Source of the DNA: Escherichia coli
Lineage (GTDB): Bacteria; Pseudomonadota; Gammaproteobacteria; Enterobacterales; Enterobacteriaceae
DNA length: 64,000 nt
Assembly (NCBI RefSeq): GCF_013122565.1
Contig: NZ_CP053258.1
Reading direction: 5' to 3' (one strand)
The position numbers were made by a program, and so were the translations under genes. Below the pieces are notes generated by a model. That model was not told the origin of the DNA and did not search any database. It worked only from the letters and a program-made list of their open reading frames with translations. This document shows, piece after piece, positions 23,511-33,742 of this stretch. How positions within the stretch are numbered: position 1 is the first letter of the stretch; each line of letters begins with the position of its first letter.

Positions 23511-24387
23511 TTACTGGCTCGCCGCAGCCAATTCTTCCTCTGACAGCCCGGTAAATCGCAGAACGTCCTCAAGAGGGACTCCGGCATCCAGCATGGTTTT
23601 GGCAATAGCACGTATACCTTTCTGAAACCCCTCCTGCCGCAATCTTTCCGCAATAGTCATTAAACTCTCCTTGTGTTTCGGTGATCGTTCGGCCACACCG
23701 TCGATAAAATCGTTAAAACGTACCGCATCGCCAGTCTGTAGTATGTAATTAAACAGCCCTTTGATTTGTCTGTCATTAGCGTATCCACTACTTAATAAGC
23801 AGGCCATTTGCTCTACCAGCCCCAGCAGGTCGCGTTGACGAATATATTTTTGAATTAACTCCAGCAGCGCCATGCGTCGGTGCTGCATGATTTCATCATC
23901 AGGCATGACGGTGACATCAATCAGCGGAAATGCAGAGGCATAAAGCTGCCTTGCCAGTTTGGGATCGGCAAAACAATCCAGCCAACACAGCGAATAGGGA
24001 TAGGGGCTTTCAATACCGTGATAAAACAACAATGGCACTACCATCGGCAACGTTTTGTGTCCGGCATCCAGGTGGTTTTGCATTGCGGCAATGGCGTAGC
24101 GCATCATGCGAAATGCGATCAATTTGTTTGAGGTGCTTTGATGTTCAATCAGGCAATAGATATATCCTGGCCCTTGTTCCGTTTTCACCGACCACAGCAC
24201 GTCGGAATAACTTTCACGCAGATCGTCATCGATAAAGCTGCTCGACTCCAGCTTGAGGGTTTTCATATCACAGCGCGCGAATGGGTGCCGGTAAATGAAA
24301 CGCAAGAAAATCGCGAGCCGTCTCCGGTTGGCGTAAAAAGAGTTTGAACAGCGCATCGTGTGGGGTGGAACTCTGCTTTTTGCTCAT
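23511..24387 (-). pseudogene. rpnA: Rpn-family recombination-promoting nuclease RpnA (YhgA), apparently frameshifted near codon 39
   Basis: N-terminal [17 protein letters not shown]...HLPAPIRAL (24387..24268) runs into TGA; the rest of the protein ([13 protein letters not shown]...) continues in the +1 frame. Confidence 0.6.
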
Positions 24388-24535
24388 GGCGTTCCTTCAC
24401 CTGTTGTTTGAATGCCGCGACTTTACGCGCCACTCTGCGCCTGTGCATTAGCGAGTTTTCATCCCTGCGAGACGCTTTCAGAGGAACTTACGTCGCGCTG
24501 CAAGAATTGCATTTTTATGGAAAGCCGCACGCAAA

Positions 24536-33070: not shown

Positions 33071-33366
33071 TAGATTGTTTTCAATTGATTGATAATGAAA
33101 GGATTCGCTTGCAAAAGCAGGAGCAATTTTCGAGGTGCTCCGGTAGGTTGACGGCGTTTGGTTTCCCAGCTTTTCACCAGGTCATAACTTACCCCTACGG
33201 CGACAGCAAAATCTTGCTGACGTAAACCCGTTGCTTCACGGATCGCTTTTACATCGATCTCGCTAAAAGTATGGACGTGCTCTGGTTCAGGCGTTTCTTC
33301 ACCCTTTTCGATGCGTACCATTTCTTCTGTGCTGGCAAGAAGATCAGCAAATAATTCATCTTTCAT
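33070..33366 (-). CDS. HTH (XRE-type) antitoxin, HigA-2-like
   Basis: 98 aa; immediately downstream of the toxin gene. Confidence 0.75.
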   Translation of the reverse strand: MKDELFADLLASTEEMVRIEKGEETPEPEHVHTFSEIDVKAIREATGLRQQDFAVAVGVSYDLVKSWETKRRQPTGAPRKLLLLLQANPFIINQLKTI

Positions 33367-33424
33367 CTGTTTTCAATGTCTCCGTTGGCATTTCGACCAT
33401 GGTGAAATTTGTGGAGCTTCAACA

Positions 33425-33742
33425 TTAAAGCAGCTTCTCGGACAATAGTTTCAATGCCTTTCTTTGTTCTTCTGTTAAATCATCCTGTTCATTTTTAGGA
33501 TAAATCAACGCCAGATAAATTCGGCCATTGCGTGTTACGTTGTAATAAATTATCCGAATGCCACCCCTTTTCCCCATTCCAGAACGGTTCCAGCGAATTT
33601 TTCTAAAACTGCCTGTGCCTGCGATAATGTCACCGGCAGTGGGATCTTGAATGAGTAGTTCCTGAAAAGCCCGGAACTCATCATCAGGTAGTAATAACTG
33701 GCGGCGTTTGCTAAATCCTTGTAGTTCAATAAAGGTGAACAT
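33425..33742 (-). CDS. HigB-2-like (Gp49/RelE-superfamily) toxin
   Basis: 105 aa; FRKIRW..GKRGGIRIIYY..YLALIYPKNEQDDLTEEQRK resembles Vibrio HigB-2; toxin-first gene order. Confidence 0.75.
   Translation of the reverse strand: MFTFIELQGFSKRRQLLLPDDEFRAFQELLIQDPTAGDIIAGTGSFRKIRWNRSGMGKRGGIRIIYYNVTRNGRIYLALIYPKNEQDDLTEEQRKALKLLSEKLL

Follow-up and report, generated by a model that had tools for sequence, protein, structure and literature searches.

The rpnA (yhgA) gene in the stretch of Escherichia coli DNA analysed here (64 kb, hereafter the window) lacks two base pairs close to codon 39, which leaves the conserved N-terminus in one reading frame and the remainder of the protein in another, and this is very probably a real, recent and strain-specific loss-of-function mutation. 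Of the three alternatives offered in an earlier note on this DNA, i.e., a pseudogene, a sequencing error or expression from an internal start without the N-terminal motif, the pseudogene is the one favoured. As a strain-private pseudogene of recent origin in a well-characterised gene, the split rpnA is ordinary and has little importance on its own.

RpnA is a PD-(D/E)XK DNA endonuclease, and its long form, RpnA_L, is the toxin of the gene-within-gene RpnLS toxin-antitoxin / antiphage system (PMC5350276, PMC10400941). The rpn genes are genes-within-genes: an internal transcript and an internal start (M244 in RpnA) give rise to a small protein, RpnS, which binds RpnL and blocks this toxin, so that the pair behaves as a toxin and its antitoxin (PMC10400941). 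The same work found that RpnP2, a homolog on a plasmid, gives protection against T-even phages, and did not show such protection for the chromosomal RpnA (PMC10400941).

Layout of the rpnA Locus

The frameshift claimed in the earlier note was confirmed on the minus strand, where two base pairs are lost (Table 1). The ATG at 24387-24385, 3′ of a GAAGGA site, opens an ORF of 39 codons that closes with the TGA at 24270-24268; 1 nt past this stop and in the +1 frame, the ATG at 24266-24264 opens an ORF of 251 codons that closes with the stop at 23513-23511 and whose product ends in AAASQ. The earlier observation that the N-terminal TPHDAxFK motif is in another frame (+1) than the rest of the protein also held: the 39-aa piece matched positions 1-39 of NF007361, the curated RpnA model (E = 3.5e-21, 75.9 bits), and the 251-aa piece matched positions 42-292 (E = 3.9e-171, 568.2 bits), so the split is a matter of homology and not of chance.

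Table 1. Coordinates of the split rpnA gene and its signals in the window.
Feature	Position	Strand	Remark
rpnA (yhgA) pseudogene, whole	23511..24387	-	877 nt vs 879 nt in intact alleles
5′ fragment ORF, RpnA residues 1-39 and premature TGA	24268..24387	-	D11 codon and 15 family-invariant residues
Deletion junction, 2 bp short of intact GCG CTC TGT GAT	24271..24273	-	placement ambiguous within codons 37-40
3′ fragment ORF, RpnA residues 42-292 (251 aa), +1 frame	23511..24266	-	carries D63, E82, Q84
RpnA_S intragenic antitoxin ORF, intact, 49 aa	23511..23660	-	match to PDB 7TH0
AAGGAG ribosome-binding site of RpnA_S	23667..23672	-	same as K-12
GAAGGA Shine-Dalgarno-like site of long form	24393..24398	-	kept in all alleles

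With the two base pairs put back, a protein of 292 aa results that matches NF007361 over its whole length (1-292/292) with 668.1 bits, and residues 8-209 of this repaired protein match PF04754 (Transposase_31 / YhgA-like). The equivalog cutoff of NF007361 is 583 bits, and both fragments as encoded fall below it, leaving no full-length match above 583 bits. The gene lies between feoC and bioH, the orthologous position of rpnA, with feoB and feoC upstream and bioH, gntX and nfuA downstream, as at the E. coli rpnA locus. Judged by its matches and its position, it is an rpnA gene by descent that would encode no RpnA protein. Annotators should mark rpnA as a frameshifted gene and should not enter its 39-aa and 251-aa ORFs as separate “transposase” genes. 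An ORF of 281 aa that is obtained mechanically from the ATG at 24356 was rejected as a gene product, being an upstream extension of the 251-aa frame, with its first 29 residues out of frame and no Shine-Dalgarno sequence; its exact product had no match in the protein collection.

Origin and Authenticity of the Deletion

The junction was aligned to four intact alleles (those of E. coli A30, A16 and K-12 included), to further alleles and to E. whittamii. Relative to the four intact alleles and E. whittamii, a single gap of two columns was found at the junction and no further indel inside rpnA, and the alignment to K-12 rpnA, which had been proposed as a check, agreed that the window is 2 bp short at this point. 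The intact alleles read CAC GCG CTC TGT GAT ATG (A30, A16 and E. whittamii), with CTT in place of CTC in K-12, and the window reads CGC GCG CTG TGA TAT G; the deletion-bearing form of the junction near 24240-24300 is GCGCGCTGTGAT, and GCGCTCTGTGAT is an in-frame form for 24268-24279. As read from the alignment, the simplest history would be the loss of CT or TC from CTCT together with a separate A->G substitution (H37R), and the loss of AC or CA together with T->G would be equally parsimonious. The loss of one TG unit from CTGTGTGAT, which the earlier note had put forward, was found wanting, since CTG TGT GAT occurs in none of the intact alleles observed: such slippage presupposes that codon 39 of the ancestor was CTG, which costs one extra and unseen C->G change, and is less parsimonious. 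The intact parent allele was sought in a collection of 15 billion proteins, in which neither the R37 nor the H37 version of the repaired protein was present.

No complete E. coli genome with this part of rpnA (~4,658 in number) carried the deletion; with a 91-nt junction query the best identity in complete E. coli genomes was 95.6%, and every alignment paired 89 nt with 91 nt. The exact junction had no match in the GTDB species representatives, neither its H37 nor its R37 version had one in the JGI metagenome contigs, and a degenerate pattern for the intact junction matched only E. whittamii. The exact 39-aa and 251-aa products were found in one other contig only, from the Logan assembly of SRR11451224, which matches the window along 20,756 nt at 100.000% identity (0 mismatches, 0 gaps); at this identity the source of SRR11451224 is, to judge by the two sequences, the same strain as the window or a clone of it. 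A literature search returned nothing on rpnA pseudogenes or on SRR11451224.

The most serious rival explanation holds that rpnA is intact in the organism and that the 2-bp gap is an artefact of sequencing or assembly. It is consistent with the facts that the deletion is known from one sample only, that the context is GC-rich (GCGCGCTCTGTG) with short dinucleotide repeats, and that no relative confirms either state of the gene, as neither version of the repaired protein occurs elsewhere. Against it stands the k-mer based, independent assembly of SRR11451224, which repeats the junction without mismatches or gaps over 20.7 kb; this contig excludes an assembler artefact, and a systematic read error would be compatible with it insofar as the two assemblies may share reads. 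A 2-bp loss outside a homopolymer, which is what the window has, is not typical of consensus errors. As a quality control, 53 proteins annotated in the nearest complete genome were mapped onto the 64-kb window, and 52 of the 53 syntenic genes run end to end in one frame, rpnA alone being split, which rules out a noisy assembly. Because the same junction recurs at the read level in SRR11451224 and the 52 neighbours are intact, the sequencing error that the earlier note had allowed for is unlikely, an artefact altogether is given a low probability, and the deletion is taken as a real mutation, private to the strain.

The substitutions in rpnA that are private to the window comprise 10 synonymous and 3 non-synonymous changes (H37R, H182Y and M189L), and the private substitutions of feoB, feoC, bioH and gntX taken together comprise 14 and 2, respectively. 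The rpnA ratio is like that of the flanking genes and looks like purifying selection, so rpnA was apparently constrained until recently: it would have been functional through most of the history of the lineage, and the frameshift would be recent. A long-standing pseudogene is unsupported by these counts, which resemble those of the neighbours. The residue replaced in H182Y (codon 182, 23842-23844, minus strand) is conserved in 90% or more of 36 Rpn homologs; the change could be specific to the lineage or could have drifted in once the gene was inactive.

Among 5,426 complete E. coli genomes, the best identity to the window was 98.9% for feoB and 98.3% for a 20-kb stretch, which suggests that the strain belongs within the E. 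coli complex, in a deep-branching or poorly sampled lineage. E. whittamii is ~92.6% identical to the window in this region.

Consequences for the Long Form

The substitutions D11A, D63A, E82A and Q84K in the K-12 protein each abolish the stimulation of recombination, the toxicity and the SOS induction (PMC5350276). All four codons are present in the window, as in the K-12 gene at the same feoC-rpnA-bioH locus; unlike in K-12, the long form is split past residue 39 by the 2-bp deletion, and the four catalytic residues are not in one polypeptide. The D11 codon (24357-24355) lies on the 39-aa fragment, and those of D63 (24203-24201), E82 (24146-24144) and Q84 (24140-24138) all lie in the other frame. 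Since D11 is parted from three residues that, like itself, are each essential in the mutant tests, the long form is expected to be inactive as nuclease and toxin, and the locus does not hold an intact RpnL toxin beside its RpnS, owing to the frameshift past codon 39.

The course of events would be as follows. The 2-bp deletion within codons 37-40 would shift the frame, and the ribosome would halt at the TGA past residue 39. D11 and the N-terminal helices would then belong to a peptide of 39 aa, with the beta-sheet core encoded in another frame, so that RpnA_L would not be made; a 251-aa product that arose by termination and reinitiation would be without D11 and presumably catalytically dead. 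Among 36 aligned homologs (64-95% identity), the first 39 positions include 15 that do not vary (P9, H10, D11, A12, F14, K15, F17, P21, T23, A24, D26, F27, H31, L32 and P33). An AlphaFold model of only moderate confidence, with a mean pLDDT of 61 (63-89 over residues ~12-120, poor over 125-205), and therefore read for the layout of the N-terminal core, has helices at residues 10-18, 21-31, 34-39 and 91-108 and strands at 40-47, 61-70, 73-82 and 116-122. In this model the break falls between the helix 34-39 and the strand 40-47 of an alpha-beta-beta-beta-alpha-beta core, and the N-terminal helices are predicted to be severed from it. The sequence upstream of M42, read directly, contains no Shine-Dalgarno sequence.

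A second rival explanation is that function is kept in a split or truncated form, either because a reinitiated RpnA(42-292) is active or because the 39-aa and 251-aa pieces reassemble non-covalently. In its favour, only 1 nt separates the stop from the next start (TGAtATG), close enough for reinitiation; D63, E82, Q84 and D165 are all retained in the 251-aa piece, together with the dimerisation domain at the C-terminus; and the modelled break falls at a boundary of secondary-structure elements. Yet the single substitution D11A is enough to remove every phenotype of RpnA (PMC5350276), the larger piece is without D11 and the 15 invariant N-terminal residues, M42 has no Shine-Dalgarno sequence before it, and the arrangement is kept in no relative, so that nothing indicates selection for it; retained function is accordingly held to be very improbable, still more so than an artefact.

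A programmed +1 (or -2) frameshift or other recoding that yields full-length RpnA_L and regulates the toxin dose, for which the stop codon at the shift site (CUG UGA U) recalls the outline of CUU UGA C in prfB, can be dismissed almost with certainty, as there is no conservation, no slippery site and no RNA structure: this part of rpnA is in a single frame in ~4,658 E. coli genomes and in E. whittamii, the lesions of other broken alleles are at other sites, a shift into the +1 frame would place tRNA-Leu from CUG on UGU, with which it cannot pair, a Shine-Dalgarno-like stimulator is absent upstream (CCCAUUCGCGCG), and the RNA downstream is predicted to fold no more stably than shuffled controls (z = +0.56). 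Orthologs split over the same two frames, which the earlier note had named as the finding that would point to such a frameshift, were sought and none was found, the GTDB representatives and metagenomes being without the junction, and the window offers neither a conserved two-frame layout nor a slippery sequence with a stimulator. The likeness to the +1 frameshift of prfB (RF2) lies in the zero-frame stop where the frames change, and in view of the missing slippery codon, Shine-Dalgarno stimulator, conservation and structure this resemblance is superficial.

On the preferred reading, that of a genuine loss-of-function mutation, the strain is predicted to be without RpnA_L nuclease activity, and the RpnA_S antitoxin may still be made.

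The Intragenic Antitoxin

The signals of the small form are untouched by the deletion: its ribosome-binding site AAGGAG (23672-23667), its ATG at 23660 and its 49-aa ORF, which runs to 23511 and matches residues 1-49 of RpnA_S in PDB 7TH0 (E = 4e-15), are all in place, and the internal ribosome-binding site and start for the small C-terminal RpnS, M244 included, are those of K-12. Mutation of K240, E241 and M244 abolishes RpnA_S, for which the ribosome-binding site and the internal start are needed (PMC10400941); K240 and M244 are invariant in the 36 homologs. RpnA_S is normally expressed from its own internal promoter, ribosome-binding site and M244 start, none of which the deletion touches, and is probably still produced here, as an orphan antitoxin. 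From its sequence, the locus most likely makes the antitoxin without the toxin. A simple scan, uninformative in this respect, returned no consensus sigma-70 promoter upstream of or inside rpnA. No PADLOC model matched, and PADLOC-DB v2 is without any Rpn model.

The middle of RpnA_S (23558-23627, minus strand) is mosaic: the window has the variant of A30, whereas K-12, A16, DFS.1 and E138 have EQSKALHIAKIMLESGVPLADIMRF. The window gene differs from that of K-12 in this variant, shared with A30, and also in the private changes H37R, H182Y and M189L. The sequence on either side of the mosaic segment is nearly identical among the alleles, and these near-identical flanks suggest a recombination patch in the antitoxin/dimerisation helix. 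The mosaic fits the reported hypervariability of RpnS.

Loss of rpnA in Other Strains

About 14% of the complete E. coli genomes have only a remnant of rpnA (763/5,424 with <80% coverage; 768 without a match to the junction query). In DFS.1 and E138 an internal deletion of 437 bp extends from about codon 26 to codon 171 (about 1600-2035 of loci L008 and L009), and in AB_24_S34 a deletion of ~254 bp was found (about 1560-2218 of locus L010). Both deletions remove the catalytic core, spare ~25 codons at the start and leave the RpnA_S ORF open, and all three genes are annotated by PGAP as pseudogenes with a “missing N-terminus”. The window resembles these remnants in that the nuclease part is destroyed and the 3′ end with the 49-aa RpnA_S is open; it differs in that its lesion is private, only 2 bp in size and leaves every codon present, whereas theirs are large and common to many genomes.

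Smaller lesions occur as well. The T5 run in codons 16-18 of rpnA is T4 in three assemblies and T6 in the complete genome LR890661.1 (about 1120-1130 of loci L012, L014, L020 and L015), and further early lesions are a change of TT to TTT at codon 7 and a 25-bp deletion (L013, L018); some of the length changes in the T run and at TT may be homopolymer sequencing errors. In these early-lesion alleles the gene callers begin the ORF at M42, and the intact CACGCGCTCTGTGAT junction and the RpnA_S region are kept in all of them. The window is like them in having an early break of the frame, a remaining ORF called from M42 and an intact RpnA_S region, and unlike them in the position and mechanism of its lesion. 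As the lesions of the other strains are at different sites, the two-frame layout is not conserved, which itself refutes a programmed frameshift. A truncated product of 89 aa is found in S. flexneri (69 contigs), and an in-frame rpnA deletion that lacks D63 also exists. The gntX gene of E. coli A16 (L003 3307-3991) is annotated as frameshifted, an unrelated pseudogene in a comparison genome.

Taken at the level of sequence, inactivation of the nuclease part of rpnA is recurrent and independent, and the RpnA_S ORF was open in every case examined. One reading is that loss is selected and not neutral decay, the costly RpnA_L being shed and RpnA_S kept as an orphan antitoxin, with the window allele as the youngest example; this is an unlikely reading. 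If it were true, RpnA_S may have a role of its own, for example in buffering other Rpn_L paralogues or incoming Rpn toxins of plasmids or phages. The loss of the toxin with the antitoxin ORF left open may come from selection or merely from the small size of the 150-nt target. The recurrent loss of the toxin half with the antitoxin kept is a modest lead, usable for a population-genomic test on intragenic toxin-antitoxin pairs.

Other Features of the Window

The first part of the window (1-3200), upstream of glpD, contains plus-strand ORFs at 162-869, 872-1660 and 1672-2448 for which NCBIfam gave no match; in the nearest reference, glgP/yzgL stand here. The segment is covered to at least 80% in only one of the 5,426 complete E. 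coli genomes, at 93% identity, where the annotation gives an ankyrin-repeat protein, hypothetical proteins and a membrane protein, and part of it belongs to a multi-copy repeat, found at a median of 11 places in each genome. Between envZ and pckA lies a pair of the NadS-family / RelE-ParE-like toxin-antitoxin type (33073-33742, minus strand), which the nearest reference has too.
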